Virus record (IMG/VR): IMGVR_UViG_3300005259_000074
Location: 1 to 64,000 of that record
Direction: 5' to 3' (one strand)
DNA length: 64,000 nt
From: a virus
Taxonomy: Duplodnaviria; Caudoviricetes
Positions 1,418 to 54,378 of this stretch are shown here, in pieces; positions within the stretch are counted from its first letter, which is position 1, and each line of letters begins with the position of its first letter. The notes under the pieces are model-generated. The model did no database searches and had not been told where the DNA came from. It worked only from the letters and a program-made list of their open reading frames with translations. Made by a program: the position numbers and the translations under genes.

Positions 1418-2773
1418 ATGCTCACGTCTGCGAACAGGCTTCTGGAAGCGATAGAGAACCTCGGAGGGCAGGCCCTCATCGTCGGAGGCGCAGTCAGAGA
1501 CATCTCGATGGGAGTCGTCCCCCACGACATCGACATAGCGACGAACCTTCCGATAGACACTATTGCGAAAAACTTCAGGTCTCACGATGTCGGGCGGTCC
1601 AAGGACTTCGGGATCGTAGTCGTCGAGTGGGAGGACTTCACGTTCGAAGTCGCTCAGTTCCGCAGTGACGGCGTCTACTCCGATGGGAGGTCTCCTGAGT
1701 CTGTCACTGCCGCTCTCGACTTCAAGACCGACGCATCTCGTCGAGACTTCACCATAAACGCTATGGCCATGGACTCCCGGGGGAACATACTCGACTACTT
1801 CGGAGGACGAGAAGACATCTCCAAGAAGGTCATCAAGACCGTCGGTGACCCCAACAAGCGGTTCCAAGAAGACAAGCTGAGGATGCTCCGGGCGGCTCGC
1901 TTCGCAGCTAAGTTGGACTTCTCCATAGATCCAGCGACGCGGGATGCAATGCTGCTGAACTGCGAGGGAATAAAGCAGGTCTCCGGAGAGCGCATTAGAG
2001 ATGAATTGATGAAGATCGCCTCTTCCGGCGGTAGACAGCTGTCTAAGATGCTGAAAGAGCTCAGTGATGCTGGAATCATGCATATCATCCTCCCTGAGAT
2101 ATCAGCGATGGAAGGTCTCCCGCACAACCCAGCTTATCATCCCGAGGGAGACGTCCTCCAGCACTGCTTCGCTGCAGTGGAGACCAGCGACTCCACCGAC
2201 CCCATCGTCAACCTCGCGATACTGTTCCACGACATCGGGAAGGTCAAAACGTTCAAGATGGACGGCGACAACCCCACGTACAGATCGCACGCGTTCGTTG
2301 GCATCGACATGTTCGAGGACATCGCGCTCAGGCTGAAGCTGTCGCGAGAAGACGCGGACCGCATATCGTTCTGCATAGAGCACCACATGCTGTTCAACTA
2401 CGAGTTCCCCAACATGAGAGACAGCACCGTCGCGAAGCTCCTGAGAGATCAGAACTTCAACGACCTACTGCTCGTCGCAGAAGCGGACGACAGGGCTCGC
2501 ATGCACGTGTACGACGCTGAGGTGTGGGGGAAGATCCACGAGAAGATCGACAAAGTCAGAGCTAAGTTGGAGCTGACGGACTATGACAAGCTCAGGAAGT
2601 TGGTCAATGGACACAGGGTCATGCAGATACTGGGGATCAAACCCGGGAAGATGGTCGGAAAGGTCATAGACGTCTCGCTCAACTGGGCTGTCGACGCTGG
2701 GATATCGGACCCCGATGCAGTATACGCTTACATAGCGGAGATGAACCTCTCAGAACTGGAGAATGACACATGA
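1418..2773 (+). CDS. cca: CCA tRNA nucleotidyltransferase with HD domain
   Basis: GGAVRD, DIDIAT, RRDFTINAMA, EDKLRMLRAARF; HD region HPEGDV...LFHDIGK. Confidence 0.95.
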   Translation: MLTSANRLLEAIENLGGQALIVGGAVRDISMGVVPHDIDIATNLPIDTIAKNFRSHDVGRSKDFGIVVVEWEDFTFEVAQFRSDGVYSDGRSPESVTAALDFKTDASRRDFTINAMAMDSRGNILDYFGGREDISKKVIKTVGDPNKRFQEDKLRMLRAARFAAKLDFSIDPATRDAMLLNCEGIKQVSGERIRDELMKIASSGGRQLSKMLKELSDAGIMHIILPEISAMEGLPHNPAYHPEGDVLQHCFAAVETSDSTDPIVNLAILFHDIGKVKTFKMDGDNPTYRSHAFVGIDMFEDIALRLKLSREDADRISFCIEHHMLFNYEFPNMRDSTVAKLLRDQNFNDLLLVAEADDRARMHVYDAEVWGKIHEKIDKVRAKLELTDYDKLRKLVNGHRVMQILGIKPGKMVGKVIDVSLNWAVDAGISDPDAVYAYIAEMNLSELENDT

Positions 2774-3057
2774 CACGCGTCTGGGGAGACTTAGAAGCTT
2801 TCGACTTGGAGAGCATAAAGTGCATTGGTATACAACGAAAGGATAACTTGCGCACAGCAATCATCACGACGTTAATCATACTGACGTTATCGATAGTCAG
2901 CGCTCTGTGCAGCGGATTTGGTGTAGTGATCTACACTGGTATGAACATCATAGTGTTCGTTGGTCTGTTCAATATAATGAGGTACGACAACAAGTGGATA
3001 GAACGTCTTGAAGAAATTGAAGCCGCCCGCCTAGATAGGAAGTTAGAAGATATATGA
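2770..3057 (+). CDS. two-TM membrane protein with C-terminal tag (KLEDI)
   Basis: ATGA-coupled; two hydrophobic segments; ends AARLDRKLEDI*. Confidence 0.7.
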   Translation: MTRVWGDLEAFDLESIKCIGIQRKDNLRTAIITTLIILTLSIVSALCSGFGVVIYTGMNIIVFVGLFNIMRYDNKWIERLEEIEAARLDRKLEDI

Positions 3058-3521
3058 AGTTCACCCTGTGGAAAGACAAAGACAAGACCGATGAGACAGT
3101 AGCTTGGGCTGAAGAGTGCCTCGCTAGAGTCGAGAAGCTTGTCGTGACAGTCGGGCCTGGGAACCCCACAATCATTACAAAGCACTTTATGCTGAAAGAG
3201 GCCTCCATTCAGATCGTCTATTACTATGTAAACCTGAAGATAGATTTCCAGTGTTTCATAGCTCAGATACTTGCAATGTTTGTCGGGAGTGTATTACTCT
3301 CTCTGTACGTAGCAGCAGAATCGCAGTCGTACGGTGCGTTATTCTACTTAGGGGAGATCACATCGATTGTGTTCTTCGCAGTGATGATCGTCTTCGTTAA
3401 GATGGCGGAAGACACAATGCAGCTTGAGACTTCCAACATCAGCGAATATCATCAAACGATGGTGACTATCGAAGAGTCTCTTCGAGATGATATCGCTGAA
3501 GCGATGCTAGAGTGGATCTAG
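3054..3521 (+). CDS. two-TM membrane protein with tag-like end (MLEWI)
   Basis: ATGA-coupled; hydrophobic segments; shares CTAG stop with the convergent gene. Confidence 0.7.
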   Translation: MKFTLWKDKDKTDETVAWAEECLARVEKLVVTVGPGNPTIITKHFMLKEASIQIVYYYVNLKIDFQCFIAQILAMFVGSVLLSLYVAAESQSYGALFYLGEITSIVFFAVMIVFVKMAEDTMQLETSNISEYHQTMVTIEESLRDDIAEAMLEWI

Positions 3522-4255
3522 CTGCCCTTCGGCAACTTTTTTAAGTCAGGTTGTGCCGGCTTCAAGTATAAGTCGTTGAGGCCTTCTCTGCTCTCGAATG
3601 CTATCGTCGCTATCTGGTCGATGTCGTGGAAATTGAACGGATTTATCTTGTTCTTAGAGTCAGCCGCGATAGGCTCTTCTTCAGCCATCCACAGTGACAT
3701 GAGATTGCCTTCGCCGACGCCAGTTTTTCCACCTTCGACTGCCCTGAGCATCTGGTTAGCGAAGCGCTTCCTCCAGTACTCCGGTTCCTCAGCTTGGAAC
3801 TGCTCAGATGTGAACGGCTTTCCGTTCTTCTTCTCCAGCTCTTCACACAGGTGCTCCATGTAGTCAACTTCTTTGAGCAGCCCTTTGATGCGTATCTCCT
3901 GCTCTTCCATCTGGCGAGACAACTCATACAACTCGAGGTCCGCGTCTTCTGCAGTTGGGTCAGCTGAACCCTTCGCATCTTCTAGTTTTTTGTTGAGCTT
4001 CGTGATCTTTCTCGACTTCTTCTCCTGGTCGATTATCAAGCGCCGCGCTTCTTGCATGGTCACGTAGCTGTTGTGAGCCAGGTGGCGGAACTTTGTGATG
4101 GGGGTGTACTCGTCACAACCAATGAACTTCTCGATCATGAAGTTAGAGCGAGTCTGAGCGAACTCTCCAGCTCTGTCTTTCATCTTATCGAGCTGCTGTT
4201 CGACAGTAGTGAAACGGGAGTCAGTCACAGCTACTTGCGCGTTGTCGTTCATCAC
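3518..4255 (-). CDS. conserved-looking coiled-coil hypothetical phage protein
   Basis: 245-aa ORF; EEPEYWRKRF..GNL motif recalled from tail-region hypotheticals. Confidence 0.7.
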   Translation of the reverse strand: MMNDNAQVAVTDSRFTTVEQQLDKMKDRAGEFAQTRSNFMIEKFIGCDEYTPITKFRHLAHNSYVTMQEARRLIIDQEKKSRKITKLNKKLEDAKGSADPTAEDADLELYELSRQMEEQEIRIKGLLKEVDYMEHLCEELEKKNGKPFTSEQFQAEEPEYWRKRFANQMLRAVEGGKTGVGEGNLMSLWMAEEEPIAADSKNKINPFNFHDIDQIATIAFESREGLNDLYLKPAQPDLKKLPKGS

Positions 4256-4674
4256 TCAGCCCTCACAGAGAACTTCTTCTTCTGTCCGTCCACCTCGAGC
4301 ACGAACTTGACGACGTAGTCATCGACGTTATCAAGAGCAGCCCCACTCTTCATGATGAATTGCACCAGGGCGTTCTTAGCTCCGAGACTCAATTCGTTGC
4401 GTGTTTCGACTGCCATTGTGGTCTTGTCGACAGACGGAGCTGGGTGAACACCGTGGACCACCTCGATCTTAGGCTGGACCTTCTCTATGGGTGTCTGATT
4501 AGAGACTGTAGTCGCCTTCGGCTTCGGAGTCATGCTCTTCTCGTAGCCTTCGGTCAGTTTGGTGAGAGACTTGTCGAGGAGAGCTCCCCACGATTCGCTA
4601 GACCCGCTGTTGTTCATGACTGACGACGGGTGTTGTGATGCTGGTGAGCTCATCGCTCCTTTTGGTGCTGACAT
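4252..4674 (-). CDS. hypothetical low-complexity protein
   Basis: ATG 4674 after AAAGGA; GTGA-coupled to next gene. Confidence 0.6.
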   Translation of the reverse strand: MSAPKGAMSSPASQHPSSVMNNSGSSESWGALLDKSLTKLTEGYEKSMTPKPKATTVSNQTPIEKVQPKIEVVHGVHPAPSVDKTTMAVETRNELSLGAKNALVQFIMKSGAALDNVDDYVVKFVLEVDGQKKKFSVRAE

Positions 4675-4721
4675 GACTTGTGTTCCTTTCACATATCACT
4701 ATAGACTCAGTGGACCGGGGC

Positions 4722-5642
4722 TCAGATCGCCCTGTAAGTACCTTCGGAGACCGCTCCGGATACTAACGCGTCTTTCACTGATGTGTGGATCCCGCCGACT
4801 GTGAAGAACTTCTTCCACATCTCGTCGAAATCGCTCTTCGCTACTTCTGCTCTGCGGATGTTCTCGTCTATCAGAGAAGCGTCATCCATAGACCAACCAT
4901 TCTCGAGACGGACTTTATTCCATCTACAATACTGCTTGAAGGGCATTTGCGACGCTATGAATACACTTCCAGCTTCGGAAGTGCCCTCTAACATGTTGTC
5001 GATGATGCCACTCGCCCAGTCTAGCTTAGTCCACCGCTTGGCTGAAGACATGTCGACGTCGGGTCTGATTATCTTACCCTGCCCCAGCGACATCATCTCG
5101 ATGTCATGGATGTCCGCACCTAACTGGTCGATTGATGCCGCTGCGAGTACCATCGATGGGTCGTTTGCGAATAGCCCTCCGTCCACATATGCTCCCATGG
5201 GATCGAAATAAGTTGGAGCAGACACTGAAGCAAGCACTGCCATCCACAAAGGATAGTCTCCATCTTGAATGGAGGAGAAGATCTTTGGACGTCTCTTGGA
5301 GTAGTCATAAGATGTGATGAACACTGGTTTCTTAAGATCTTTCATCTTGACGTTGTAGTTCTTCTTACAGAATTCTACGAGGACTTTATTCGGCCATCTA
5401 GAACCAAATGGTGTCAGCGTGTGGTACGAAAGGAAGTTGCGATTAAAGACTTCTGGTAGCCAGCCTCTCATGATGGGAAGGAGATCTGCTGGATCTTTAC
5501 CCATGAATATCCAAGCAACAATAGCGGTACCGATAGATGTCGCTCCTGCGCAATCGAACTCACTTAGCGGATCTTTGTCTCTCGTCAGCGCAGCAGTTAT
5601 GACTCCGAAACACCCTCCACCGTCAACAGCCCATTCTTTCAT
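4722..5642 (-). CDS. patatin-like phospholipase
   Basis: DGGGCFG oxyanion loop, nucleophile elbow ATSIG (G>A variant of GxSxG), SVSAPTYF, DGGLFANDP. Confidence 0.9.
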   Translation of the reverse strand: MKEWAVDGGGCFGVITAALTRDKDPLSEFDCAGATSIGTAIVAWIFMGKDPADLLPIMRGWLPEVFNRNFLSYHTLTPFGSRWPNKVLVEFCKKNYNVKMKDLKKPVFITSYDYSKRRPKIFSSIQDGDYPLWMAVLASVSAPTYFDPMGAYVDGGLFANDPSMVLAAASIDQLGADIHDIEMMSLGQGKIIRPDVDMSSAKRWTKLDWASGIIDNMLEGTSEAGSVFIASQMPFKQYCRWNKVRLENGWSMDDASLIDENIRRAEVAKSDFDEMWKKFFTVGGIHTSVKDALVSGAVSEGTYRAI

Positions 5643-5682
5643 CGTCAGCGCCTACATTCTTTCATCTTTCGCTCGATCATAT

Positions 5683-5928
5683 CTAATGATCGTTGCATTT
5701 CATTTTTCTTTTATTCAGTTTGTCTAACAACATGTCACCTTCTTTAGATGTCATGTTGCCATCCGACACACGCTCGACAATGTAGCACTCGGCAGCTTCA
5801 TATCCCAATGAGTCAGCTAATTGTTCTACTATCATAGTGTCAGATTCAAGCTGGTCGTGCACAAGTGGTGTGCACGCCGCTATACAACATATCAGAAACA
5901 CCATTGATAACAATAACAAGGAACGCAT
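5683..5928 (-). CDS. small lipoprotein
   Basis: N-terminal signal with lipobox IAAC. Confidence 0.65.
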   Translation of the reverse strand: MRSLLLLSMVFLICCIAACTPLVHDQLESDTMIVEQLADSLGYEAAECYIVERVSDGNMTSKEGDMLLDKLNKRKMKCNDH

Positions 5929-5937
5929 GTGGTGTTC

Positions 5938-6702
5938 TTAAGTTAAAATAATCCTATTAGCGAAATCAGCCGTTCCAACGAACTCCGGGCGCTGACTGTA
6001 CCCGTACCTAGAGAGGCGAGGAACAGTCGCATCAATGAGAGGACCGTAAGCTGGAGAACCGAGTTCTCCCCATATTTCCAGCGCATAGTGTGTGAAAGCA
6101 CCGCAACAGTGACCACCAATGCAAGCATCTGCGCTAGTCTGGTTAGACCTACAAGCTGCCAACTGAGTCACTCCAGGTCGCCTATCTGGATCGATAGGAG
6201 TGCTAGTTATCCTCATGATAGCTGAACTCAAGTCGAAATTCGGAATGAACTTAGCTTTCTCATCTTTGAACATCAGCTCGCGGAGGGAGTCCGCCGCATG
6301 GCAGCAGTCGGCCCAGTCGACGAATTGAGCGCCTGGTTTCAACAGACTGAGCAGTTTGTCCATCTGGTCGTCTACTATCATGTGATCAGGATCCCAATCG
6401 AAATCGTCGGGACACCAGACTTCAGCTAGTCCGTCGGTCTCGGTGGAGTCAGACACTTGTGCCCCGTGGTGGCTGTGAGCGTGGAACACGATGTCACCTG
6501 GGTTAGCGTCTCTGATGTACTTCTCGAGGAGAGCCAACCAGTTCTTAGTGCTCATGTTTGGTCCGAGGAGTTCGACTATCTCGTCGATGTTCCCAAGTGA
6601 CACTAACTTCTTCTTGATGTCTTCCATATCATTCAGACACCCCTTAAGTGCATGAGATTTTCCGACGTAATTAGTCCCACAGAGCAACGCTATCCTCTTC
6701 AC
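5938..6702 (-). CDS. metacaspase-like cysteine peptidase (C14)
   Basis: LKGCLND, HSHHG (catalytic His), DCCH (catalytic Cys), LAACRSNQTSAD, GAFT. Confidence 0.9.
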   Translation of the reverse strand: MKRIALLCGTNYVGKSHALKGCLNDMEDIKKKLVSLGNIDEIVELLGPNMSTKNWLALLEKYIRDANPGDIVFHAHSHHGAQVSDSTETDGLAEVWCPDDFDWDPDHMIVDDQMDKLLSLLKPGAQFVDWADCCHAADSLRELMFKDEKAKFIPNFDLSSAIMRITSTPIDPDRRPGVTQLAACRSNQTSADACIGGHCCGAFTHYALEIWGELGSPAYGPLIDATVPRLSRYGYSQRPEFVGTADFANRIILT

Positions 6703-6753
6703 GTCATTCTCCTAGTTAATCGTGTGTGCCGCCCTCAAAGGGCGGCTAAAAGT

Positions 6754-7194
6754 TCACTTGATCTTGATGCCCTTCTCAGCGAGGATTTTCTCTGCGACAG
6801 GGAGCTTAGACGCATTGAACCCTCTCGAGAACACTGCATTGAGAGCTTTGACTTCGAGATCTCTGATATCAGCGATCGCTTTTACTTTAGTGAGGCTCTT
6901 AGTCTCCGACACAGTAGTCGCAGTCGCTGTTGAACTTGCGAGAGCGGCCGAAGCGCTGTTAGCGAGAGCTGCGATTGCCGTAGCTTCACTGGCTTGTGAA
7001 GCATCGATGACGCCAGCTGTCTCGAGAGCCGATGTAATAGACGCCACGTTGTTAGAAGTCGTCATTGCCTGCACTGTGCTCGCCGCAGTGCTGATTGCTG
7101 CTGTGACGTCTGTCGAGTTGCACCCGACGATGACACTGGCTGTCAGCGCGACAGCGAAGACGATCGCGATAGATAGGTTCTTGAAGCTTTTCAT
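6754..7194 (-). CDS. Ala/Thr-rich lipoprotein
   Basis: Signal peptide with lipobox IVGC; helical Ala-rich body. Confidence 0.7.
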   Translation of the reverse strand: MKSFKNLSIAIVFAVALTASVIVGCNSTDVTAAISTAASTVQAMTTSNNVASITSALETAGVIDASQASEATAIAALANSASAALASSTATATTVSETKSLTKVKAIADIRDLEVKALNAVFSRGFNASKLPVAEKILAEKGIKIK

Positions 7195-7222
7195 GATACG
7201 TTTCCTCTTGTTGTGTTGAGAT

Positions 7223-7897
7223 TTACTTGTCTGACGTCAATTTCTTCTGGAGCACTCGGAACATCTTTTCATCCGCTATCATGCGGTTATCGATGGGATC
7301 TTCACCAGCAGTTAAAGCGTCTAGACTCTTGTCAGTCATGTTCGCCAACTCATTAAATCTTGTATTGACCTCTTTGTCAGATGCGGCGATTTCTCTTATC
7401 TTCGTCAGAGTCTCAAACGCTCTGGCTTGTGCAGGTAAATCCATCGCGTCTATTTGCTTACTCAGAGTCTTTTCGAAGTACTTCGCTACTGATTCAGTGT
7501 CTACTACTTCCAGGCCGTCGATCTCTATTGTGATCGATCCATCAGCATGAGTCTCAATCTTCGTCTTTTTCAACCTCGTCTTAGCTGCATAATCCCAGTT
7601 CAACTCTCCGACAGAAGAACTACCATAAGGAAGCGTCGACTTTGAGATCCTTAAGGACATCATGTCACCGTCTCCAAGTTTATGATTGAATATCTTAGAG
7701 TAAATGGTACCGAAGTCTAACCTAGGTGATATTGCTCCATCAGAACCGACTGAAGTGTTGAACGTGAAACCACTGCCTTGAGCACTCGCTGTAGTGGATT
7801 TTCCACCCAAATCTTTCCATAACTCATCAAAAGCACAGCCTGCCGCTATCGTCAATACCAGACAAAAAACGCACAAGATAATTAATTTCTTCATCAT
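7223..7897 (-). CDS. lipoprotein, unknown function
   Basis: ATG 7897 after AGGAG; MMKKLIIL...AAGC lipobox. Confidence 0.7.
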   Translation of the reverse strand: MMKKLIILCVFCLVLTIAAGCAFDELWKDLGGKSTTASAQGSGFTFNTSVGSDGAISPRLDFGTIYSKIFNHKLGDGDMMSLRISKSTLPYGSSSVGELNWDYAAKTRLKKTKIETHADGSITIEIDGLEVVDTESVAKYFEKTLSKQIDAMDLPAQARAFETLTKIREIAASDKEVNTRFNELANMTDKSLDALTAGEDPIDNRMIADEKMFRVLQKKLTSDK

Positions 7898-7936
7898 TTT
7901 CTCCTGATTATCAAGAATTATCGTCACTGTTTGATT

Positions 7937-7944
7937 TATTTATA
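7937..7944 (-). promoter_or_regulatory. T4-type late promoter TATAAATA
   Basis: Exact gp55 consensus about 40 nt upstream of the lipoprotein/metacaspase/patatin operon. Confidence 0.75.
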
Positions 7945-7993: not shown

Positions 7994-8374
7994 TCATTGT
8001 TCGAGCTCCGTAATTTTTGCTTTGACGCTGACAAGATCTATTGAGGCCTGGGAGAGTGCTGTTGCTGTGACTACGTCGGAAAGGTCAATGACTTGCGCGT
8101 CCGCCCAATCTGCTTTGAACTCTGAGGAAGACTCTAGAAGCGCGTCAAGCTGGCTCTCAATTCCAAGAGCTCTCATTGCGCGGCGGATTTGGAGTTTCGA
8201 GACATATTGGGGTGTCAGAACTGCGCCAGCTGGAAGCTCTTGACCTATATCTATTCCCGGTGTCGAGTCAGCTATTGTGTAGATGCTCGCGGTCGGATAG
8301 AGTGCAAAAAGCCTTTGCGACATTTCATCAGCATAGGTCGCTTCGATCATTCCATTGAAAATGACGAGTTGCAT
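7994..8374 (-). CDS. tail fibre-associated (assembly chaperone-like) protein
   Basis: Follows a fibre gene; VSKLQIRRAM...WADAQVI motif typical of fibre-adjacent proteins. Confidence 0.55.
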   Translation of the reverse strand: MQLVIFNGMIEATYADEMSQRLFALYPTASIYTIADSTPGIDIGQELPAGAVLTPQYVSKLQIRRAMRALGIESQLDALLESSSEFKADWADAQVIDLSDVVTATALSQASIDLVSVKAKITELEQ

Positions 8375-8384
8375 GAAGTCCTCC

Positions 8385-9908
8385 TTAGTTTCTGATATAG
8401 GCGTTATAATTGCCGTTGGTGTTGACTGCCGGGGTCGCGTTGGTGGTGCAGGATGTAAACGTAACTCCTACGGCGTAAACAAAGCTACCCTGATAGCATG
8501 ATATGCCTGTCGTAGCGGTGTTTATAGTTGCGCTAGCCGCGTAAACCAAACTGACATTTTGGCAAACGATTCCCGTGGTGCAATTTGTAATGGCTGCGGA
8601 GTTGATGAGCGCACTGGAGAAGTAGTTTACGTTTACGCCATAGGTGCAAGCAGTAATCGTTAGAGAACCCGCATTCGAAACAAACTCAGCCCTGCTTCCT
8701 ACCGCTACACCGCTTCCGCAATTCGACATGGTGCAGTACGGAATTTGCAATTCCGAACCCATTTGAACAGACGCGCCATACGCGGTCGTTCCAGAGAAGA
8801 CTGCGTATTGCAATCGAACTTGCGAATTGTATGAAATGAACAATCCGCCATTAGATTGGTTGTTCGAGAAGCACAAAGCTGTAGCTTGCGTAGTCGCGCC
8901 GTAAACGGAAGACATGTAGTATACAGTGAAGGAAGTCCCGAAAAAGCCGCATGTTATAATAGACTTGATGAAAGACCCGTTAGCGATGTAAATACCGGCA
9001 CTTGATGTCGCTCCACCAGAGTTCGTGAAAGCGCAGTTTTGAATAGAATTGAGACACCCTGTAAGTAGGGTCCAGCCTTGCACGCCTGTAGTGCTAGATG
9101 TTATGTCTATGATGGTTTTTAATACCACCGCGGTAGATGTTGCTGTCACAGCTCCGGCCGGAACGCCTGTAGGATTCGTGCAAGATACGCTGATACGCTT
9201 GTTTCCGGTATCTACATTTGTGATGGGCCAGCACCCCTCTGCGTATTTAGGGTTCGTTCCTCCACTACAGCCCGATATGTTGATGTAGTCCCCTACGGAC
9301 ACGTTTGCCACATCATTCATATTAAACGTAATCGTATAGGCCCCGGATGAACCGCTAGAACTTTGAACAGAGGAAATGCTCTTTACATAAGTGTGTGTTC
9401 CTGCTATATTGATGAAAGTTCCATGGCGGTGTAGCAGATTTGTGGAGCCTGAAGAGGAATACGTGCCATCAGCTAGATAGATGTTGACTGTTGCGGTGAT
9501 ATCGTAATCCTGAAGATACACGATTGCTTTCCCGACAGTCGCCCAGGGATTACCTGATGATCCATCTCCTGTAGTATCCGATCCAGTGGTCGCGACATAA
9601 AAGTTAGTAGTCGCCGATATGACTCCACTGCTAGCTACAGTAGCTCTGCCTTTCGAATCAAATGTGACCGCGGCTCTAGCATAACTTCCTGCCGCAACCC
9701 CTGAAGATGCTAGTGTTAAATTGCCCGGATAATCTAATGTAGCATCGCCATAGACTGTGATGGCTGTAGCTACACCGGACATGTTACCCATGAAAATCTT
9801 ATTCGCTGCAAGTTGAAGCGTTGAAGCAATCGGTGTGATGGCAGAGTTGCCTGCTATCAAAAATATTAGACTCGTCACTAGAAGCGCTGTAGCTAGTGCT
9901 CTTTTCAT
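8385..9908 (-). CDS. tail fibre/tailspike-like protein with beta-helix (pectin lyase-like) C-terminus
   Basis: GVAAGSYARAAVTFDSKGRAT fibre motif, FYVATTGSDTTGDGSSGNPWATV, Ser/Thr/Asn-rich beta-helix repeats. Confidence 0.75.
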   Translation of the reverse strand: MKRALATALLVTSLIFLIAGNSAITPIASTLQLAANKIFMGNMSGVATAITVYGDATLDYPGNLTLASSGVAAGSYARAAVTFDSKGRATVASSGVISATTNFYVATTGSDTTGDGSSGNPWATVGKAIVYLQDYDITATVNIYLADGTYSSSGSTNLLHRHGTFINIAGTHTYVKSISSVQSSSGSSGAYTITFNMNDVANVSVGDYINISGCSGGTNPKYAEGCWPITNVDTGNKRISVSCTNPTGVPAGAVTATSTAVVLKTIIDITSSTTGVQGWTLLTGCLNSIQNCAFTNSGGATSSAGIYIANGSFIKSIITCGFFGTSFTVYYMSSVYGATTQATALCFSNNQSNGGLFISYNSQVRLQYAVFSGTTAYGASVQMGSELQIPYCTMSNCGSGVAVGSRAEFVSNAGSLTITACTYGVNVNYFSSALINSAAITNCTTGIVCQNVSLVYAASATINTATTGISCYQGSFVYAVGVTFTSCTTNATPAVNTNGNYNAYIRN

Positions 9909-10324
9909 GCTAAGATCTCCTTTATTCTGGTTTCACTGAGTATTCCTATGGCTACAAGATAGGCCATAGCGTCTTCCATCTCTTCTCCATCGAGGACACA
10001 CTCTTGATAGAGTTGCATGCCTTCTCGCCATTCCGTTATCGCTGTATCAGAAGATGCTTTGAGAGCTTGAAGTTCAGTAGTCAAGAATCGATTATAGAAC
10101 TCCTTTGGGCTACAAACGCGGTGTCGCATGACAATTGGAGTGATCGAAAGATCAATCGCGTTGAGTACCGATTGTGCTTCCTCGCGCTGCGCTTCTGTAG
10201 CAGAAGGAAGATAGTCCACCACCCACGTGGTCTTATCGTTCCAGTCGCCTAGGCTGATGCCCTGCGCTGGAACCACCTTTTGCACTTTAGCAAAGACGTC
10301 GTCAGTAGTTAAAACAGCCATCAT
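9905..10324 (-). CDS. tail fibre-associated (assembly chaperone-like) protein
   Basis: Directly after the 989-aa fibre; ends LVAIGILSETRIKEILA, typical of fibre-adjacent chaperones. Confidence 0.55.
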   Translation of the reverse strand: MMAVLTTDDVFAKVQKVVPAQGISLGDWNDKTTWVVDYLPSATEAQREEAQSVLNAIDLSITPIVMRHRVCSPKEFYNRFLTTELQALKASSDTAITEWREGMQLYQECVLDGEEMEDAMAYLVAIGILSETRIKEILA

Positions 10325-13294
10325 TCACCCTTTGAAAAGAAGCGAGTATCCGTAGGCTCCATAGCATGTTATGCTACCTATCGCATATTCGCTGATTGTT
10401 ACATAATGGTAACCCACACTTAACATAGTAGTGACCTCGTAGCACACCACTAAATAACTAGAAGTCCATTCACATCCGGCATTGGTGTTGGCGGGAGCAT
10501 CGATCGACAACTGCCGATAGCCGGCTCCAGTTGCATATAGACGATTAAGTGATCGCGCAAACATGACGTCACCTACGACAGTCTCGCCGCGAATCTGCCC
10601 CGTTCCAGCGTTGCTCTCACGCCAGGCACCTGTTGTGTATGTCCAACTCGCATTACTGTTATACGTCGTAATGGCTCTGTCCACCTGGTTGTATTCATTC
10701 CAGACGAATCTTCGTGTGGTGCTATCTTCACACTGTCCAGTTGTTGATGTCGTGCGAATGGTTCCTACATACCGGTACTCTGGATGTCCGGTCAGTGTCT
10801 TAACGCCGTTTTGGAGAACCAGGGCGGTCGCCCTGGTCGAAGCACTAGCCCATGCCAGTAGATAGAGGGCTATGCTCGGAGAATCTACGGTGCCCTCATT
10901 TCTTATGAACACATCGAAATTAGTGGAGGACGTAAGACCAGTCAGGGCAAAAGACAGTTCAGAGATACTCACCACATACCAATCCACAGTGGCATCATAG
11001 AGAGCAATCCGGTTCCCATGATAAAGACATGCATACAGTGTCGTAGCTGCCGTTATATCGCTGGCTGTGATAGGGGTTCCGGATGCTAGACTCAGTCGGA
11101 TGTCGCAGATATCGAGTGGGACGAAGTCTGGGATTCCAGAATCTTTTACCTCAGTTCCTGATGTGTTATTCCAGAGCACTCTATGTCCAGCTACGGAAGC
11201 TACTGGCCCCACTACGTTTCCAGCGGCGGCAGTGATCTGCACAGCCTGCGCTTTGAACACTTCAATGGTGTTAGCGTCCTTCAAGTTAGCGCAGGGTAGC
11301 ACATATGAAGCTAGTGTGCTAGGGGGTGTCAGCGTCAGCACTCCAGCTGTAGCATCCGACACAAAGAGCGTAGGGCCATCAGCTAGATCGAAACCGTGGG
11401 TCCAAGTATGTAGTCCAGCTTTTGTCACAACGACGTGATCTGCGTCTGTCACTGTCTTGACGATGCCGAAAAATTCAGCATTCGCTGCCGTGTCTGCTTT
11501 ACTGAGTACGAAGACTCCATTCAGAAGAATGCTGATCGGTTGATTGGCAGTGAAACCGTGGCTAACTTGATATATCGATTCCGTGATTGCACTAGATGTT
11601 CCACCAGTAGTCAGTTGGTCTATAGTATTGAGAGCGTGTTGAACTGTTGTGTCAGTCGATGAGAGATTCTTAGTAAATGTTGAAGTATCGACTGTCACAG
11701 CAGACGCAGCTAAGGTTTGTATATGAAGAGCTGCTGATATAGCTTTGTCGTCAGCGTGGTACAGCGTGTATATTTGACCAGACAGAGTCATGTCCAACGC
11801 ATGACTGTTGGCGCTCACTGCGATGTCAGAAGCGTGCCAACTAGTGTAATTTGCTCCAGATGTAGATGTTATCTGAGAGTGGAGATCTCCGGAGACGATC
11901 TTATCGTCAGAATGATAGTTAGATGTGATTGTCGCCGAGATATTCAGGTCCGCTCCGTGCCAAGAACTGAAGTTTGAACCACTTACAGATGTCACTTGAG
12001 AGTGCAAAAAGCCAGAAATGTTCTTGTCATCTGCATGGTACAGCGTGTAGAGACCCGCTGATAGGTTCTTATCTGCATCGTGCCACAAGTCTTGGTCCGC
12101 CCCGCTGGCTGCAACGATCTGACCGTGCAAGAACGCTGATATCGCCGTGTCTCCTGCGTGCCAGGACACTTGGTTCTCCGCGCTAGTAGAAATCACTTGA
12201 CCGTGCAGCGTCGAGTACAAGCTACCTGACATAGATAGATCGGAGCTGTGCCAAGATCCCAAGTTAGACGCACTCGTCGACACTATCTGAGAGTGCATCG
12301 CTCCGGAGACCGCTACGTCACCCGCGTGATACAGAGGAACTAGTTCTCCGCTGATTAGTTTGTCAGCTGAATGCCAAGCGAGGGCGTTGGAAGCGCTAGT
12401 AGCGGTTATCTGTCCGTGCAACGTCGAGTACACGCTTCCAGATACTGTCTTGTCATCCGCGTGGTAGAGGTCGTACAGCTGGCCAGACAGCACAATATCG
12501 GCAGGGTGCCAACCGCTAGAGCTAGCTCCTGTCACAGCAGTTATCTGAGAGTGGAGCTCAGAGTAGACATAGCTGGAGACATTGAGATCCGCTTGGTGCC
12601 AGGTGTTCAAGTTAGAAGCGCTAACAGCAGTTATCTGGCTGTGAAGAGTTCCGGAGATCGATTTATCGTCTGCGTGGTACAGAGTGTACAGTTCTCCAGA
12701 TAGGATCTTGTCCGCATAGTGATACGCTGCAGCACCAACCGCGCTAGTAGAGGTTATCTGGTCGTGGAGCGTCGAGTACAAGCTCGCCGATGTCGACTTG
12801 TCGTCGCCGTGATACAGCGAGTAGAGCTGTCCAGACAGCGAAACGTCAGACGCGTGCCAACCGATGGCATCAGCTGCACTCACTGAAGTCACTTGGGAGT
12901 GCAATTGTCCGGAAACGTTCTTGTCATCCGCGTGGTACATCTCGTAGAGACTGCTAGATAAAGACACGTCATACGAGTGAGCTGAAGCGAGAGTGCTTCC
13001 AAACTGGCTCATCAGGTCTAGCTGAGCGCTGATGTTTCCAGATATGGATCCCCAAACCCCACCTCCACTGCCTCCACTTATATGTCCAACGATAGCTGAC
13101 AATGGCTTCCAATAAGAAGACGTTGTGCCTCCCGATAAAAAGTACAGAGAATCGTTCGCACTAACGTAAGCGATCATTCCTGGATAAGTAAACGTGAGTG
13201 AGTTCCTAGCAGTCAAGTCTGCGACGACTATCCTAGAATCTAGGGGATTGTTCGTGTTGGGAACGAAGTTCGTCGTTAGATATATGCCAGACAT
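10325..13294 (-). CDS. long tail fibre protein with His/Asp-rich helical repeats
   Basis: N-terminal PLDSR fibre motif, central repeats, HGF...FGIV domain shared with the neighbouring fibre. Confidence 0.75.
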   Translation of the reverse strand: MSGIYLTTNFVPNTNNPLDSRIVVADLTARNSLTFTYPGMIAYVSANDSLYFLSGGTTSSYWKPLSAIVGHISGGSGGGVWGSISGNISAQLDLMSQFGSTLASAHSYDVSLSSSLYEMYHADDKNVSGQLHSQVTSVSAADAIGWHASDVSLSGQLYSLYHGDDKSTSASLYSTLHDQITSTSAVGAAAYHYADKILSGELYTLYHADDKSISGTLHSQITAVSASNLNTWHQADLNVSSYVYSELHSQITAVTGASSSGWHPADIVLSGQLYDLYHADDKTVSGSVYSTLHGQITATSASNALAWHSADKLISGELVPLYHAGDVAVSGAMHSQIVSTSASNLGSWHSSDLSMSGSLYSTLHGQVISTSAENQVSWHAGDTAISAFLHGQIVAASGADQDLWHDADKNLSAGLYTLYHADDKNISGFLHSQVTSVSGSNFSSWHGADLNISATITSNYHSDDKIVSGDLHSQITSTSGANYTSWHASDIAVSANSHALDMTLSGQIYTLYHADDKAISAALHIQTLAASAVTVDTSTFTKNLSSTDTTVQHALNTIDQLTTGGTSSAITESIYQVSHGFTANQPISILLNGVFVLSKADTAANAEFFGIVKTVTDADHVVVTKAGLHTWTHGFDLADGPTLFVSDATAGVLTLTPPSTLASYVLPCANLKDANTIEVFKAQAVQITAAAGNVVGPVASVAGHRVLWNNTSGTEVKDSGIPDFVPLDICDIRLSLASGTPITASDITAATTLYACLYHGNRIALYDATVDWYVVSISELSFALTGLTSSTNFDVFIRNEGTVDSPSIALYLLAWASASTRATALVLQNGVKTLTGHPEYRYVGTIRTTSTTGQCEDSTTRRFVWNEYNQVDRAITTYNSNASWTYTTGAWRESNAGTGQIRGETVVGDVMFARSLNRLYATGAGYRQLSIDAPANTNAGCEWTSSYLVVCYEVTTMLSVGYHYVTISEYAIGSITCYGAYGYSLLFKG
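11720..12965 (-). repeat. intragenic protein repeat: about 18 (Y/W)HxxD and about 11 LH(S/G/D)Q units
   Basis: Units such as LYTLYHADDKxxSGxLHSQITxxSAxxxxxWHxxD counted in the translation. Confidence 0.85.
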
Positions 13295-13307
13295 TCAGGT
13301 GTTTCCT

Positions 13308-15155
13308 TTAAAACTTGAATTGGAACTCTCCACCGTAGACGGTCGTCAGATCTGACTCATAGACATAGAAATTAGTCGTCCAGTCAGAGTACAGACCAGT
13401 CGAAGTCACTGACACTGTGCTCTGTGTGAAAGATCCAGTGATATCAAACGAATTTGGGTCGAGTATCTGTGACAGAAGACCATAAGATGTTGGGTAGCAA
13501 AAATACATGTAGACATTTGTCCCAGACATATTTATAGTCTTGTTTCCGGTTGCAGCGACACTCTTTGTGAGACCCGTGTACAGCGCAGAGCCGGAGAGTG
13601 ACCCGGACGCGCTAGTCCCGTAGAGGAACGGGTACACGAATGTCGCGGTCCTCAGAGTGCTGTATATGTCAGTCGCAGATCCGTTGTTGGCGACGTTGGC
13701 TTTCAGCTGGTACGTCGTATTGGTCGTTATAGCTGCTGGCGCTGCTTGGTTTATCACGTTAGTCGCGAAAGTGTCTGATGCGACTCCTCCGACTAACACT
13801 GTCCTGGTGTTGACAACGGTCTCGTCGTTCAGAGTCAGCGCTCCTATCAGCTGCATCGTCGGGTGAGTGCCAACTTCTTGCAAGGAGAAGTCGTTGAGTG
13901 ATAGAGTAGCCGGGATGAATGGAAAGAAGTACTCTTCTAAGAACGTCTTGACCGTGGAAGTGCCAACGTTGACTGCAGGAAGACCTGAACGCTTGACAGT
14001 GCGGTTGCCGTTGAAGTACAGCGAAGTGTTGATCCCATCGAAGTTGCCAGACACCGTAGCAGTCGTCGAGGTGTAGTTTCCGGGTGAATACGCTATGTTG
14101 CCCTTGTCTAAGTAAGGTAGACGGGCTACTCCAACAGTTCCAGAAGACAAGTTAGAAGCGTTAGTCTGGTCTACGTTCTGGACCGCGCTGAGCCCGACGT
14201 CTGACTTAGTGACTGTTACATCAGTGCCCAGTGTGTGTCCATTGACTTGTCGAGTCGTCGGGACGTAACCCGCGATGACCGTTGCTACAGCTTTTTCAGA
14301 CGGCACGTTAGCGTCGGAACCAGGAGAACTGACTGTCGTGACTAGTTGAGACGCTTTCAACTGTGCGTCGTTAGTCACATTAGTCAGGCCGACTTGGGTC
14401 TTCGTCAGCCCCGTCAAGTTAGAACCGTTGACTACGGGTAGAAGCGCGCCAGAAGTAAGCTGCACCACATCATAAGCAGAAGTTCCGACGTCCTTCGTCG
14501 CAGCAGTTCCCAACCCTAAGTGATACCTCGAAGCAGACACACTCTGAACATCTGACAAGTTTCCCGACAGAGTGAGGTACGCTCCAGTCAACGCGTGAGA
14601 CTGCGTCGGAATGACGTAAGCCGGTGCTGTCTCCACGAACACGTTGTTGGCATCTAAGACGTACGCCACTTTCTTGTACACAGTGCCTTCGCCGGTCGGA
14701 GCGGTCGTGGTGAGGTTTCCAGCTACTGTAGAGAGAAAAAGTTCTGCATTCGTTGCGTAACCGTGGGTGTGCCACGAGTACTTACCAGAGGTGACGAGGA
14801 CGAAGTTGTTAGCGTCTATGACGGACGACAGCAGTCCAAATACGTCTGCGTTAGTCAAAGTCGCAGCTGAAGCCAGTCCGTAACCGCTAGAAGTCTTCTT
14901 GATAGGTTTGTTGATGTCACCGGATGTCAATCCATGAGACGTCTTAGTGAGCACTACCGCGTTCCCGCCGTCTCTAACCCACACGGGAGCTCCAGCTGCA
15001 TTGGACATGCACAGCCACTTAGCGTAGGGAGAGACGTTCGTATCGTAAGCGGCGTCACCGACTGAGATACCGGAGTTCACGTCTAGAGTCGGAGCGAGGC
15101 CCGAGAAGTTCTGCACCCACTTCTTGTTCGACAGCGTGTTCAGCTCTTTAGACAT
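13308..15155 (-). CDS. tail fibre protein
   Basis: ATG 15155 after GGAG; GNLSDV..LGLGTAATKDVGT, KTQVGLTNVTND and KSDVGLSAVQN fibre repeats. Confidence 0.8.
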   Translation of the reverse strand: MSKELNTLSNKKWVQNFSGLAPTLDVNSGISVGDAAYDTNVSPYAKWLCMSNAAGAPVWVRDGGNAVVLTKTSHGLTSGDINKPIKKTSSGYGLASAATLTNADVFGLLSSVIDANNFVLVTSGKYSWHTHGYATNAELFLSTVAGNLTTTAPTGEGTVYKKVAYVLDANNVFVETAPAYVIPTQSHALTGAYLTLSGNLSDVQSVSASRYHLGLGTAATKDVGTSAYDVVQLTSGALLPVVNGSNLTGLTKTQVGLTNVTNDAQLKASQLVTTVSSPGSDANVPSEKAVATVIAGYVPTTRQVNGHTLGTDVTVTKSDVGLSAVQNVDQTNASNLSSGTVGVARLPYLDKGNIAYSPGNYTSTTATVSGNFDGINTSLYFNGNRTVKRSGLPAVNVGTSTVKTFLEEYFFPFIPATLSLNDFSLQEVGTHPTMQLIGALTLNDETVVNTRTVLVGGVASDTFATNVINQAAPAAITTNTTYQLKANVANNGSATDIYSTLRTATFVYPFLYGTSASGSLSGSALYTGLTKSVAATGNKTINMSGTNVYMYFCYPTSYGLLSQILDPNSFDITGSFTQSTVSVTSTGLYSDWTTNFYVYESDLTTVYGGEFQFKF

Positions 15156-15186
15156 CAGTCTCCGTGCAGTTTTTGTATTCAAAGAC

Positions 15187-17386: not shown

Positions 17387-17655
17387 ACGATCCGAAGATA
17401 GGCTGCGTACGCAGGAACAAGGGTGTCGGCATCGGCGGTGGTTTCATATGCACCGCCGATGCCAGAGATCCAAAAGACACGTGCGCGTTCGTCAAGCTAG
17501 ATAAGTACAAGCTGTGCTCCTACTTGGGATCTGCATTCTCCTCTCTGCAGGACAGAGTCAACACTAGAGAGTGCACTTCGTCAGACGCAGTCGAAGCGCT
17601 GAGGAAGAAGGAGAAGGAAGAACTGTCTATCATCAGGGCACTGGACGGAATCTAG
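17383..17655 (+). CDS. CRT-family protein with probable CTG start
   Basis: Absent from the ORF track; translated by hand: 5 Cys, ...RECTSSDAVEA...IRALDGI*; CTG overlaps upstream TGA. Confidence 0.6.
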   Translation: MNDPKIGCVRRNKGVGIGGGFICTADARDPKDTCAFVKLDKYKLCSYLGSAFSSLQDRVNTRECTSSDAVEALRKKEKEELSIIRALDGI

Positions 17656-18149
17656 ATGATATCTTGCTCTCTCAGCGTCTCCAACACTTTCTGAGAATCG
17701 CAGAACATCTTCTTCTTGAACAATCTGCTGACGGGCATCCATTCCCATCCTTCGCACTTGTCGGGTTCAGCGTTAGACACCACGATCTCTTCGAGAGTCT
17801 TAGATGGACACAGCACGACGTACACCGTCAAGAACACTTCTCCGTCGACTACATCTTCGAAACACATCATACCAGGTCCTCGAGCTTCGATGACACTGCG
17901 AGGGTCTATTCCGCATTCTTCGTGCAGTTCTCGCTTAGCGCACTCCAATATGCTCTCATCTGGTTCTAGATGCCCACCTGGAAGAGACAGCGTACCGCTT
18001 CCAGCGCAGTTCTTCCTCTTTCCGACGAGCACGTTCCGCCCTCTGATGCCGTCGAGCAGCACTACTCCCACGCCTATCTGGTGACGGAATGGATACGAGA
18101 CTCGCTGTCCATTGATGTCTGATGAGAGAATTCTCGTAGCTGATGGCAT
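17652..18149 (-). CDS. Nudix hydrolase (NUDT15/MutT-like)
   Basis: GVGVVL..VGKRK..LPGGHLEPDESILECAKRELHEECG Nudix box. Confidence 0.9.
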   Translation of the reverse strand: MPSATRILSSDINGQRVSYPFRHQIGVGVVLLDGIRGRNVLVGKRKNCAGSGTLSLPGGHLEPDESILECAKRELHEECGIDPRSVIEARGPGMMCFEDVVDGEVFLTVYVVLCPSKTLEEIVVSNAEPDKCEGWEWMPVSRLFKKKMFCDSQKVLETLREQDII

Positions 18150-22066: not shown

Positions 22067-22996
22067 TCAGTCCAGTCTTCTGAATGCTACGCTCGACGCT
22101 TCATCTTGGAGCCATATCCTAAGAGCTCCCATCAGCTGCCTGTGGTTTAGGACTATTTTCTCGATGAGGTTCTTGTCGTCTACGTCGAACCACTTCAGCT
22201 CGCAGATGTCGTCATCTGGAGACGGAATGCCGAACACCAACTTCCTCGCGAAGAACGCCGTCGTGATCTTGTCGTCTTCTCCCTTGTACCGCCAGTCGTC
22301 TATGAAGTAGCTCCCGATGTAGGAGATGTGAGCCGTCTCGAGGTGAGTCTCCTCGGCCGTCTCCCGCTGAGCAGCCGCTTCGAACGTCTCTCCTGGGTTG
22401 ACGAACCCACCCACGAAACGGTATAGAGCCTCGTCTTCTTTCCGAGCGAGGAGGACCTTGGAACCGTCTTCATTCAGTATCGCGATGTCTACCGTCGGGT
22501 AACAGTGCGGGTACTGGTTGGCCGTCGCCCAGATGACCCCCGCGCGAAACTCGTCAGAAGCTTTGACTTTGGCAGATATCGTCTTGCGGACTTCGTTGCC
22601 GCTCTTGAACACTCCCAGGTGCAGGACTTTGGTCTCGTACTTTCCTCTGTACAGGTTGACAAAGCTGTCTCGTCCCCCGTAGAGGACAGCAGTCTGACGC
22701 GGGCCGATGTTATCCTCGATCTGCTTGTCGAGGTTCTTGGACCATAGCACATCGTTGTTGACGTCTTTAATGTAGAGGACAGTGATCTCTGGGAACTGCT
22801 TGAGGATCATCTGCTTCCGAGATTCAAGGTCCAGCGGGTTCTTCAGAGTGCTCTTGCACGGGCTGAGACCTAGGAATATGATGACTTTGGGATGATTCTT
22901 GACGACGCTCTCGATCAGAGACACGTGTCCTTCATGGAGTTCGTCTACTTGGAACCTTCCGACTAGCACGCCGACGGTTGGAGCTCTTTCCATCAT
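22067..22996 (-). CDS. nadM: bifunctional NMN adenylyltransferase / ADP-ribose pyrophosphatase (NadM-Nudix)
   Basis: VGRFQ...HEGH nucleotidyltransferase motif plus C-terminal Nudix box GGFVNPGETFEAAAQRETAEET. Confidence 0.92.
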   Translation of the reverse strand: MMERAPTVGVLVGRFQVDELHEGHVSLIESVVKNHPKVIIFLGLSPCKSTLKNPLDLESRKQMILKQFPEITVLYIKDVNNDVLWSKNLDKQIEDNIGPRQTAVLYGGRDSFVNLYRGKYETKVLHLGVFKSGNEVRKTISAKVKASDEFRAGVIWATANQYPHCYPTVDIAILNEDGSKVLLARKEDEALYRFVGGFVNPGETFEAAAQRETAEETHLETAHISYIGSYFIDDWRYKGEDDKITTAFFARKLVFGIPSPDDDICELKWFDVDDKNLIEKIVLNHRQLMGALRIWLQDEASSVAFRRLD

Positions 22997-51767: not shown

Positions 51768-52178
51768 TTATTTCTTAGACGGTCTCAGCGCGATGTTTCC
51801 ACGAGACTTCGCCGCCTCGTACACTTCATCAGCAGCTTTTCCGAGCGCTTCGAGTTCTTTGGAGTGCTTTTCGCAATAGGCGACAGCTTCTTCTAGATCA
51901 GTGACAGCAGATTTCCACTCTTTCAAGTACTCTTCTTTAGCTTTCTGAAGCGAAGTGTAACCACCTGGAGTAGATATTCCCATGAAGAACTGCAGTTGGA
52001 ATCCCTTCTGCTTGTCGGCTAAAACGTTCACTACACCGCCGAAAGAAGTCTTACCGAAACTCTTGTTCAGAGCTCTTGTCTTCTCGTCGATCTTCGCCAT
52101 CTCATCGACAAACTGCTTGTCTTCGAGAATCTTATCGGACTTAGTCAACTTCTCAAATGCATCATCGAACTTGCTCAT
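51768..52178 (-). CDS. putative internal head protein (MSKFDD leader)
   Basis: MSKFDDAFEKL..ILE. Confidence 0.7.
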   Translation of the reverse strand: MSKFDDAFEKLTKSDKILEDKQFVDEMAKIDEKTRALNKSFGKTSFGGVVNVLADKQKGFQLQFFMGISTPGGYTSLQKAKEEYLKEWKSAVTDLEEAVAYCEKHSKELEALGKAADEVYEAAKSRGNIALRPSKK

Positions 52179-52732
52179 TTAACCCATGCCTTTTCAACAT
52201 TCTGGAGGTTGTTGTACGCACGTTTGGCTGAGTTGAACGCGTCTTCGCTCTGGTGTTTGATACTCTCTATGTCCATCATCGGAAGATTGCTGTTCGCGCC
52301 GAGAGATTTGTTGAGTTCTTTAGCTTTGTTGTAGAGAGATTCAGCTTCCACAAAAGTCTCGTTTGCCAATTTGCCGACTTCCCGCGCTTTAGTGACCAAC
52401 GCGCTGATGTTAACGTTGGTATTAGCTTCAGTCAATTTCTCAGAATTATCTTCAAAATCGTCAGCTTCTTTGATGAACGACTTATCGAGGACTCCGTGCT
52501 TGACAAGTTCTGCGACCGCAGCTTTCCTGTACTTTTTATACTGGGAAGAGTTCAGTTGGGTATCTTCTCTGTCTTTGAACTGCTGATAACTTCCGGTTTG
52601 CAGGACTTTAACCCACTCTTCGTTGTCTTTCAGAGACCTCGCATCATTAGTCCCCATCTCCTTCAGATCGTTGTCGGTGAATGACTCTTCACTCAGAGAG
52701 TATTTCTTTAAAACATCATCGAACTTGCTCAT
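52175..52732 (-). CDS. putative internal head protein (MSKFDD leader)
   Basis: MSKFDDVLKKYSLSEE; internal IKE and LTE protease-like sites. Confidence 0.7.
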   Translation of the reverse strand: MSKFDDVLKKYSLSEESFTDNDLKEMGTNDARSLKDNEEWVKVLQTGSYQQFKDREDTQLNSSQYKKYRKAAVAELVKHGVLDKSFIKEADDFEDNSEKLTEANTNVNISALVTKAREVGKLANETFVEAESLYNKAKELNKSLGANSNLPMMDIESIKHQSEDAFNSAKRAYNNLQNVEKAWVK

Positions 52733-52737
52733 GTCAA

Positions 52738-53160
52738 TCAGTCCTTCTTTATCAGTTTAGCAAAATCATTGAAATTGCTTTCAGCTTCTTCTGCATCTCC
52801 ACCCGTGTAGTGTTTCTTCAAGTGGTGTATGAGCGAATGTTTGTTCCCTACGAGATGGACCACAGGATGTCCACCGCCAGGTCCACTCATCGTCATTACT
52901 TTTCCTTCTACACCCGGAGTGCTGTTTATCTTACGCTCCAGAGATTTTTGGTCTCCATCATGCATCCAATCTAGCTTGATCTCATGCCGGGCCTGATCGA
53001 TCTTTTCAAATTTTCCTCCAACTTTGCGGAACAGAGGTTTGTGATCTTCTTTTCCGTAGAAGCCCTGACCGATAGAATGAGTGCCTTCAGGTCCCTGAAG
53101 TTTTGAATTCGCCTTCTCTTCACCGATAATGCTCTCATAAAGTTCTTGAAACTTGCTCAT
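52738..53160 (-). CDS. putative internal head protein (MSKFQELYE leader)
   Basis: Shares GPExTH..G.GFYG.E...PLFRKVG.KFEKI domain with the next gene. Confidence 0.75.
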   Translation of the reverse strand: MSKFQELYESIIGEEKANSKLQGPEGTHSIGQGFYGKEDHKPLFRKVGGKFEKIDQARHEIKLDWMHDGDQKSLERKINSTPGVEGKVMTMSGPGGGHPVVHLVGNKHSLIHHLKKHYTGGDAEEAESNFNDFAKLIKKD

Positions 53161-53165
53161 TCCAA

Positions 53166-53959: not shown

Positions 53960-53966
53960 TTGACCC

Positions 53967-54377: not shown

Positions 54378-54378
54378 T

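Follow-up and report, generated by a model that had tools for sequence, protein, structure and literature searches.

What would a bacteriophage do with a caspase-like protease, a patatin-like phospholipase, and three lipoproteins encoded in one operon? This question is raised by a minus-strand cassette of seven genes at positions 3518–7944 of a 64,000-nucleotide stretch of viral DNA—hereafter the window—which comprises the first 64 kb of the 262,470-bp IMG/VR virus record IMGVR_UViG_3300005259_000074 (G000; CheckV completeness 97%). Caspase-like and CapV-like enzymes are best known as bacterial suicide effectors. Phage lysis of diderm hosts is usually explained by a holin, an endolysin, and a spanin, and many uncultured phages carry no recognisable spanins. 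The first-pass annotation of the window had described the operon as a candidate non-canonical lysis or egress cassette, and its genes, catalytic residues, promoter-like motif at 7937, and position behind the tail-fibre genes were all borne out by reanalysis. Judged by gene neighbourhoods in related phages, the conserved partnership is that of the caspase with a phospholipase A2 (PLA2) and lipoproteins, not that of the caspase with a patatin specifically. The cassette is tentatively read as an accessory envelope-attack or egress module that would supplement a conventional wall hydrolase—a reading held with slightly less than even confidence.

The comparison rests on 137 loci from viral, metagenome, and genome collections, with genes called by a simple longest-open reading frame (ORF) script; the contexts of a 60%-identity caspase homologue and of 45–47%-identity patatin homologues lie outside the loci read. 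Caspase and patatin occur within 10 kb of each other in none of these loci (0/137), and no patatin is found anywhere in the other caspase-bearing viral records (0/26; 27 records were searched including the window's own, and 11 of the 27 are at least 90% complete). Co-occurrence in other phages, which the first-pass annotation had put forward as a check, is hence not observed for the caspase–patatin pair, and the two were rejected as a conserved pair. Single-protein scans of IMG/VR returned no close relatives of either the caspase or the patatin, and 11 kb of the window gave no megablast match among GenBank phages, which contain no close relative.

The window caspase falls into a five-row clade (support 98/98) nested in an eight-row clade (support 100/99), and each row of the five-row clade has an adjacent PLA2 gene. 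At the loci L002, L118/119/133, L116, and L120, this PLA2 neighbour is an Endonuclease_NS+DUF1353 fusion with its HD motif kept. L002—a scaffold of a Lentisphaerae metagenome-assembled genome (MAG)—features two lipoproteins, the caspase, the nuclease–DUF1353 fusion, and a LydA holin. The order in L118/119/133 is tail-fibre homologues, a lipoprotein, the caspase, the nuclease–DUF1353 fusion, and a LydA-type holin (PF16083; PHROG 'holin'); such a holin thus stands straight after the PLA2 in two lineages (L002 and L119). L116 has the caspase followed by the fusion. L120, whose caspase is 56% identical to that of the window, carries homologues of the window's tail-fibre-region genes (989 and 139 residues), a lipoD-like lipoprotein, the Endonuclease_NS+DUF1353 fusion, a coiled-coil protein with one transmembrane domain (TMD), two lipoproteins, and the caspase. 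This caspase homologue, the closest one fetched (10001–10736), is broken over three reading frames because of either assembly indels or gene decay. In L117 of the sister group, a weakly lipoB-like ORF precedes the caspase and a stand-alone DUF1353 gene, and in L014, with a more distant caspase, a lipoprotein and the caspase are followed by an Amidase_3 endolysin gene.

A lipoprotein gene stands immediately ahead of the caspase in L002, L118/119, L120, L004/5, and L014. L004 and L005 lie in genomes of 161 and 248 kb (G003 and G004; jumbo phage syntenic with the window). Their caspase gene has a large fibre-like gene and a lipoprotein gene before it and a tail-collar fibre gene after it; their convergent CCA-adding enzyme gene shares 40% identity with that of the window (1418–2773). 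The 248-kb G004 has a DUF1353 gene 11 kb from the caspase and the same SleB-like hydrolase family as G000, and no DUF1353 is found in G000. Since the DUF1353 PLA2 holds the position of the patatin in relatives from the caspase clade, the patatin looks like a non-orthologous PLA2 replacement inside a recurrent lipoprotein–metacaspase–PLA2 module. Such a module was defined in this analysis by a caspase of the clade flanked directly by lipoprotein and PLA2 genes, and the window operon has this arrangement with the patatin in place of DUF1353.

The same survey bears on a different explanation, namely that the operon is a mosaic of unrelated cargo genes that gathered in a plastic region behind the tail fibres and share a promoter without a joint function. 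The nonconserved caspase–patatin pairing would fit, as would the many contexts in which phage patatins and distant caspases are found, the lack of conserved partners for lipoB and the two terminal operon products F and G, and a GC content that ranges from 41% to 53% among neighbouring genes. This explanation is considered quite unlikely, given that members of the caspase clade time and again have lipoprotein genes and PLA2s of two unrelated folds as partners, a pattern that chance would hardly produce.

The relatives also give a lead to the host. Relatives of lipoA stem from MAGs of Victivallaceae and Lentisphaerota, weak matches to the lipoA N-domain occur in 8 of the 301 Lentisphaerota genomes searched, and a 50%-identity caspase sits on a Lentisphaerae MAG scaffold. 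The 262,470-bp record is labelled 'provirus' by IMG/VR, and a protein collection places the same genes on a contig of 313,637 bp.

The metacaspase gene (5938–6702, minus strand) encodes a Peptidase_C14 protein of the metacaspase type (PF00656) with 254 residues and without a signal peptide. It starts with GTG—a start backed by homologues that cover the N-terminus from that codon. The protein matches PF00656 with 50.4 bits (cut-off 21.4; E value 3e-13) over residues 2–242, and a search with its family profile retrieves yeast Mca1 and Trypanosoma MCA2 with E values of 4e-47 to 6e-39. The catalytic dyad of H79 (in HSHHG) and C134 (in DCCH) is invariant across 23 homologues and aligns to yeast Mca1. 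Residues C22, D25, S77, and D132 are likewise invariant in the 23 homologues and map to the residues that line the basic-residue S1 pocket of MCA2; the caspase thus has the acidic S1-pocket residues predicted to confer Arg/Lys specificity. With type I metacaspases (yeast Mca1 and Trypanosoma MCA2) and bacterial orthocaspases, the window caspase shares the His–Cys dyad, the C-x-x-D, S-x-H, and D-x-C motifs, and an acidic loop. Unlike these enzymes, it is a phage product of minimal size without a prodomain, and its gene has lipoprotein and PLA2 genes as partners. The literature searched contained no account of phage metacaspases in such modules.

The patatin-like phospholipase (4722–5642, minus strand; PF01734) has 306 residues and no signal peptide. 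It matches PF01734 with 56.4 bits (cut-off 27.7; E value 6e-15) and conserves the oxyanion segment D7-G8-G9-G10-x-x-G13, the nucleophile S36, and D154-G155-G156; G8–G10, G13, S36, and D154 are invariant in homologues. The nucleophile elbow is A-T-S-I-G; here an Ala replaces the first Gly of G-x-S-x-G, a Gly that is retained in at least 90% of homologues. The AlphaFold2 model has a predicted local distance difference test (pLDDT) score of 82, and Foldseek gives template-modelling (TM) scores of 0.71 to AbCapV and 0.65 to plant patatin. A family profile of the patatin finds CapV in the PDB with an E value of 5.6e-48, and the best named phage matches are the patatins of phage WO at 27–30% identity.

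CapV and CapE, the cGAMP- or cUMP-AMP-activated patatin phospholipases of the cyclic oligonucleotide-based antiphage signalling system (CBASS), give the best profile and fold match and share the Ser–Asp dyad and a similar compact size. The window patatin differs from them in having no cGAS/DncV-like nucleotidyltransferase (CD-NTase) partner, in scoring below the equivalog cut-off, and in being encoded by a phage in a late structural region. Membership of CBASS CapV was rejected: the score against the NCBIfam model CBASS_lipase is 75.2 bits compared with an equivalog cut-off of 200, and a six-frame scan of G000 gave no match to a CD-NTase (SMODS, PF18144). The label 'CapV-like' given by the first-pass annotation therefore holds for fold and chemistry only. 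These matches invite the view that the operon is a conflict module, in which the phage would turn captured effectors of cell death, namely the CapV-like lipase and the caspase-like protease, against host defences or competing phages or would use them to decoy immune signals. Both enzymes match PADLOC models, the patatin that of the CBASS phospholipase effector (E value 2.5e-29) and the caspase that of a caspase (E value 5.5e-8), and CapV and CapE are the closest folds to the patatin. However, plant patatin is almost as similar, the operon contains neither a sensor nor a signalling domain, and the missing CD-NTase and the low CBASS_lipase score point the same way. Such a role is regarded as very unlikely.

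That neither enzyme has a signal peptide and that both genes lie in the tail-fibre region would also suit packaging of the caspase and the patatin in the virion or their attachment to the tail, from where they would open a surface layer or the outer membrane at infection. Some phage patatins come after tail modules (L035, L038, and L066), and some caspase homologues carry an N-terminal extension of 50 residues that could be a targeting peptide. However, both enzymes are single-domain proteins without a tail-anchoring domain, the lipoproteins of the same operon must work in the infected cell, and the holin and endolysin neighbours in relatives suggest exit rather than entry. A virion-borne or ejected function is accordingly judged highly improbable.

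The three lipoproteins were called by pattern rules and not by a trained predictor. About four or five proteins with a credible lipobox are found genome-wide, and three of them are encoded in the 2.2-kb stretch of the cassette. LipoA (7223–7897, minus strand; alternative GTG start at 7927) has 224 residues and the lipobox LTIAAG|C. It features a β-rich N-domain and a helical C-domain, and the AlphaFold2 model is weak in the N-domain (mean pLDDT 60.6). Its family counts approximately 10 members among 1.8 billion representatives, with the lipobox present in all full-length ones. The N-domain (residues 23–88) matches seven separate stretches of a metagenomic protein of 1746 residues (P0069). A gasdermin-like or T-holin-like identity of lipoA was rejected, as no family matched. 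LipoB (6754–7194, minus strand) is an Ala/Ser/Thr-rich protein of 146 residues with the lipobox SVIVG|C; it has no homologues at an E value of 0.01 or below and weakly matches the ORF immediately upstream of the L117 caspase (E value 0.006). LipoD (5683–5928, minus strand) has 81 residues and the lipobox CIAA|C, which violates the strict PROSITE pattern at position −4 only; its C-terminus gives a weak SHOCT-like Pfam match (E value 0.004), and a weak homologue is encoded in L120 at 7074–7502 (28% identity over 72 residues; E value 0.005). Elsewhere in the window, a gene for a 192-residue lipoprotein (54759–55337) adjoins seven or more paralogous genes arranged in tandem on the minus strand (51768–54744), the products of which start with MSKFQELYE or MSKFDD and then diverge.

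Lipoproteins next to tail-fibre genes call to mind superinfection exclusion. Llp of T5 and Cor of lambdoid phages mask or modify the receptor, and llp and cor adjoin receptor-binding genes. In an analogous role, the window lipoproteins would act on the receptor from within the envelope, by masking or modifying it, and the protease and the lipase would protect progeny by destroying receptor-bearing debris after lysis; the genes would be kept beside the receptor-binding genes because both functions coevolve. The location agrees with this, since the module follows the tail-fibre genes here and in L118–L120 and lies between fibre genes in L004/5, and so does the clustering of three lineage-specific, fast-evolving lipoproteins. 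On the other hand, no similarity to Llp or Cor is seen, a promoter of the late type would be an unusual choice given the early expression of T5 llp, and the holin and endolysin neighbours in relatives are left unexplained. Exclusion combined with progeny protection is thus an unlikely explanation.

The operon is headed by a T4-late-promoter-like motif, TATAAATA, at 7937–7944 on the minus strand (exact match). Four copies of TATAAATA occur in the window compared with 0.48 expected, and 11 occur in the whole genome, most of them 29–52 nt ahead of a gene start. One of the genomic copies stands ahead of a head–tail adaptor gene, and this was the only PHROG match obtained for the genes behind the remaining TATAAATA sites; because of this single match, the designation of the operon as 'late' rests mainly on the motif itself. 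The ATG of lipoA at 7897 lies approximately 40 nt downstream of the motif and is preceded by an AGGAG ribosome-binding site. The seven genes follow in the order lipoA, lipoB, caspase, lipoD, patatin, F, and G with spacings of −4 to 51 nt, and the operon runs down to 3518, facing a convergent operon on the plus strand. Another copy of TATAAATA is located 135 nt upstream of a cytidylyltransferase–Nudix fusion gene (22067–22996, minus strand), and a further Nudix hydrolase gene is found at 17652–18149 (minus strand).

Upstream of the operon, the minus strand at 7994–15182 carries a gene for a 126-residue protein and four tail-fibre-like genes (8385–9908, 9905–10324, 10325–13294, and 13308–15182) with tail and tail-fibre PHROG matches; the patatin gene belongs to the operon that comes next and follows the last of the tail-fibre-like genes at a distance of 2.7 kb. 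In L118, L119, and L120, the caspase is closely preceded by homologues of the genes at 10325–13294 and 9905–10324. Toward the distal end of the operon, protein F (4252–4692, minus strand) has 140–146 residues, the ATG at 4674 having the better ribosome-binding site; it has no match in Pfam, PHROGs, NCBIfam, or PADLOC and no transmembrane segment. The last gene, G (3518–4255, minus strand), shares its first 4 nt with the end of F and encodes a charged, coiled-coil-like protein of 245 residues that matches phrog_1409 (function not known) with an E value of 7e-6. Searches of the ESM Atlas with lipoA and G gave no informative match (scores at or below 0.78).

Two plus-strand genes at 2770–3521 come after the gene of the CCA-adding enzyme (1418–2773) and converge on the cassette. 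Their products of 95 and 155 residues have two transmembrane segments each, with the hydrophobic segments read from the translations, and charged C-termini. These features are holin-like only, and neither protein matches a holin family.

Genes for lysis were surveyed by six-frame hidden Markov model (HMM) scans of the whole genome with 12 families, a set that does not include Rz/Rz1, CHAP, NlpC/P60, and M15_3. No match was obtained to GH24 (PF00959), SLT (PF01464), Amidase_2 (PF01510), M23 (PF01551), M15_4 (PF13539), Amidase_3 (PF01520), GH108 (PF05838), or GH25 (PF01183). The scan with GH19 (PF00182) was blank as well, but it was blank in every control genome too and carries no weight. The only family matched is the SleB-like Hydrolase_2 (PF07486) at G000:235139–235621, with 45 bits compared with a cut-off of 27. 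This hydrolase of 160 residues features a hydrophobic N-terminal segment rich in Gly, Ala, and Ser and a YSEA motif; its layout is that of a putative secreted or signal-anchor-release (SAR) endolysin. The gene (L139, 1378–1860) lies outside the window, approximately 230 kb from the cassette, and a TATAAAT-like motif occurs about 95 nt upstream of it. The earlier statement that no holin or endolysin is recognisable in the window is therefore upheld by the family scans but does not extend to the genome, which has this hydrolase at 235 kb. Because a SleB-like wall hydrolase is present, the cassette need not replace canonical lysis.

The proposal of a lysis or egress function gains comparative support from the clade neighbours—lipoproteins, the DUF1353 PLA2, and a LydA holin in two lineages—and from Amidase_3 in L014, and it loses the part in which the cassette stands in for canonical lysis. 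Recurring lipoproteins together with a signal-less protease, a signal-less PLA2 that in some cases is fused to a nuclease of the secreted type, and often a holin at the end of the tail-fibre region, in the window behind a promoter motif of the late type, are best explained as envelope enzymes that would act after the opening of the inner membrane. For this accessory module, we infer the following timing, compartments, substrates, and effect on lysis. The module would be transcribed late from the T4-type late promoter. Late in infection, the three lipoproteins would be exported and attached to the host envelope by lipid anchors, and the metacaspase and the patatin PLA2 would build up in the cytoplasm because they lack signal peptides. 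When infection draws to a close and the inner membrane becomes permeable, both enzymes would gain access to the periplasm and the outer membrane, where the phospholipase may attack membrane lipid and the Arg/Lys-directed protease may cleave envelope proteins such as tethers or receptors. The outcome would be a faster breakdown of the outer membrane and fewer progeny lost on debris, with the SleB-type wall hydrolase being supplemented and not replaced.

Several observations weigh against this accessory envelope-attack or egress module. Among the records examined, the caspase–patatin pairing is found in this phage only. Distant phage caspases (23–32% identity) and most phage patatins have mixed neighbours, mostly of DNA metabolism, and PHROG tallies around both show no enrichment of lysis or tail genes. 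The operon contains no holin or transmembrane protein, and the holin that accompanies the caspase–PLA2–lipoprotein module in relatives has no counterpart in G000, where neither T-holin (PF11031) nor LydA holin (PF16083) gave a match in the whole genome. A spanin architecture is not recognisable in the lipoproteins and no i-spanin-like partner is present in the operon, the Rz/Rz1 families not having been scanned. The secreted or SAR-like peptidoglycan hydrolase makes the module unneeded to explain lysis, and the adjacency to tail-fibre genes suits exclusion or virion roles just as well.

The nearest published idea is the 'patatin-based lytic cassette' proposed for Wolbachia phage WO. This putative cassette beside the tail module was proposed to attack membranes at exit and is itself a hypothesis (Bordenstein and Bordenstein 2022, PMC9203015); it contains a holin-like protein with a single TMD and an ankyrin protein, and WO phages are without any endolysin (PMC9203015). 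The likeness consists of a patatin-like PLA2 near a tail module and of the WO patatins being the best named phage matches. In contrast, the window operon has no TMD or ankyrin gene and additionally includes a metacaspase and three lipoproteins, and the genome has a SleB-like hydrolase at another site. A second parallel is TtaP of the typhoid-toxin islet, a DUF1353 protein with a His/Asp dyad and demonstrated PLA2 activity (PMC11525133). Homologues occur in prophages, and lysozyme, endonuclease, and protease domains are noted as fusion partners (PMC11525133). TtaP is a small cytoplasmic PLA2 tied to phage-derived genes for opening the envelope, which recalls the arrangement proposed here, and DUF1353 takes the position of the patatin in the caspase relatives. 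Fold and mechanism are unrelated, however: a His/Asp PLA2 resembling group XIV in the one case and a Ser/Asp patatin in the other.

Canonical lysis sets of Gram-negative hosts and LysB of mycobacteriophages provide the third comparison. Late expression would be shared, the lipoproteins recall o-spanins, and a lipolytic enzyme for the outer membrane recalls LysB. The cassette differs from these sets by having neither an i-spanin-like partner with a TMD and coiled coil nor a holin in the operon, and its endolysin candidate lies 230 kb off.

A recurrent late module that combines a caspase-like protease with a PLA2 and lipoproteins would offer a candidate for the step that is missing at the outer membrane or in egress. 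A rather doubtful extension of this idea is that, in a phage lineage probably infecting Lentisphaerota-type diderm hosts, a metacaspase and a PLA2 would replace spanins at the outer-membrane step together with phage lipoproteins, the PLA2 slot being filled by either DUF1353 or a patatin. That phospholipases of two unrelated kinds take each other's place in a single caspase clade is a comparative signal that makes such a module directly testable. If the extension is true, the module would constitute a third system of outer-membrane disruption beside spanins and disruptins, and it would also show phages themselves using caspase-like and CapV-like enzymes.

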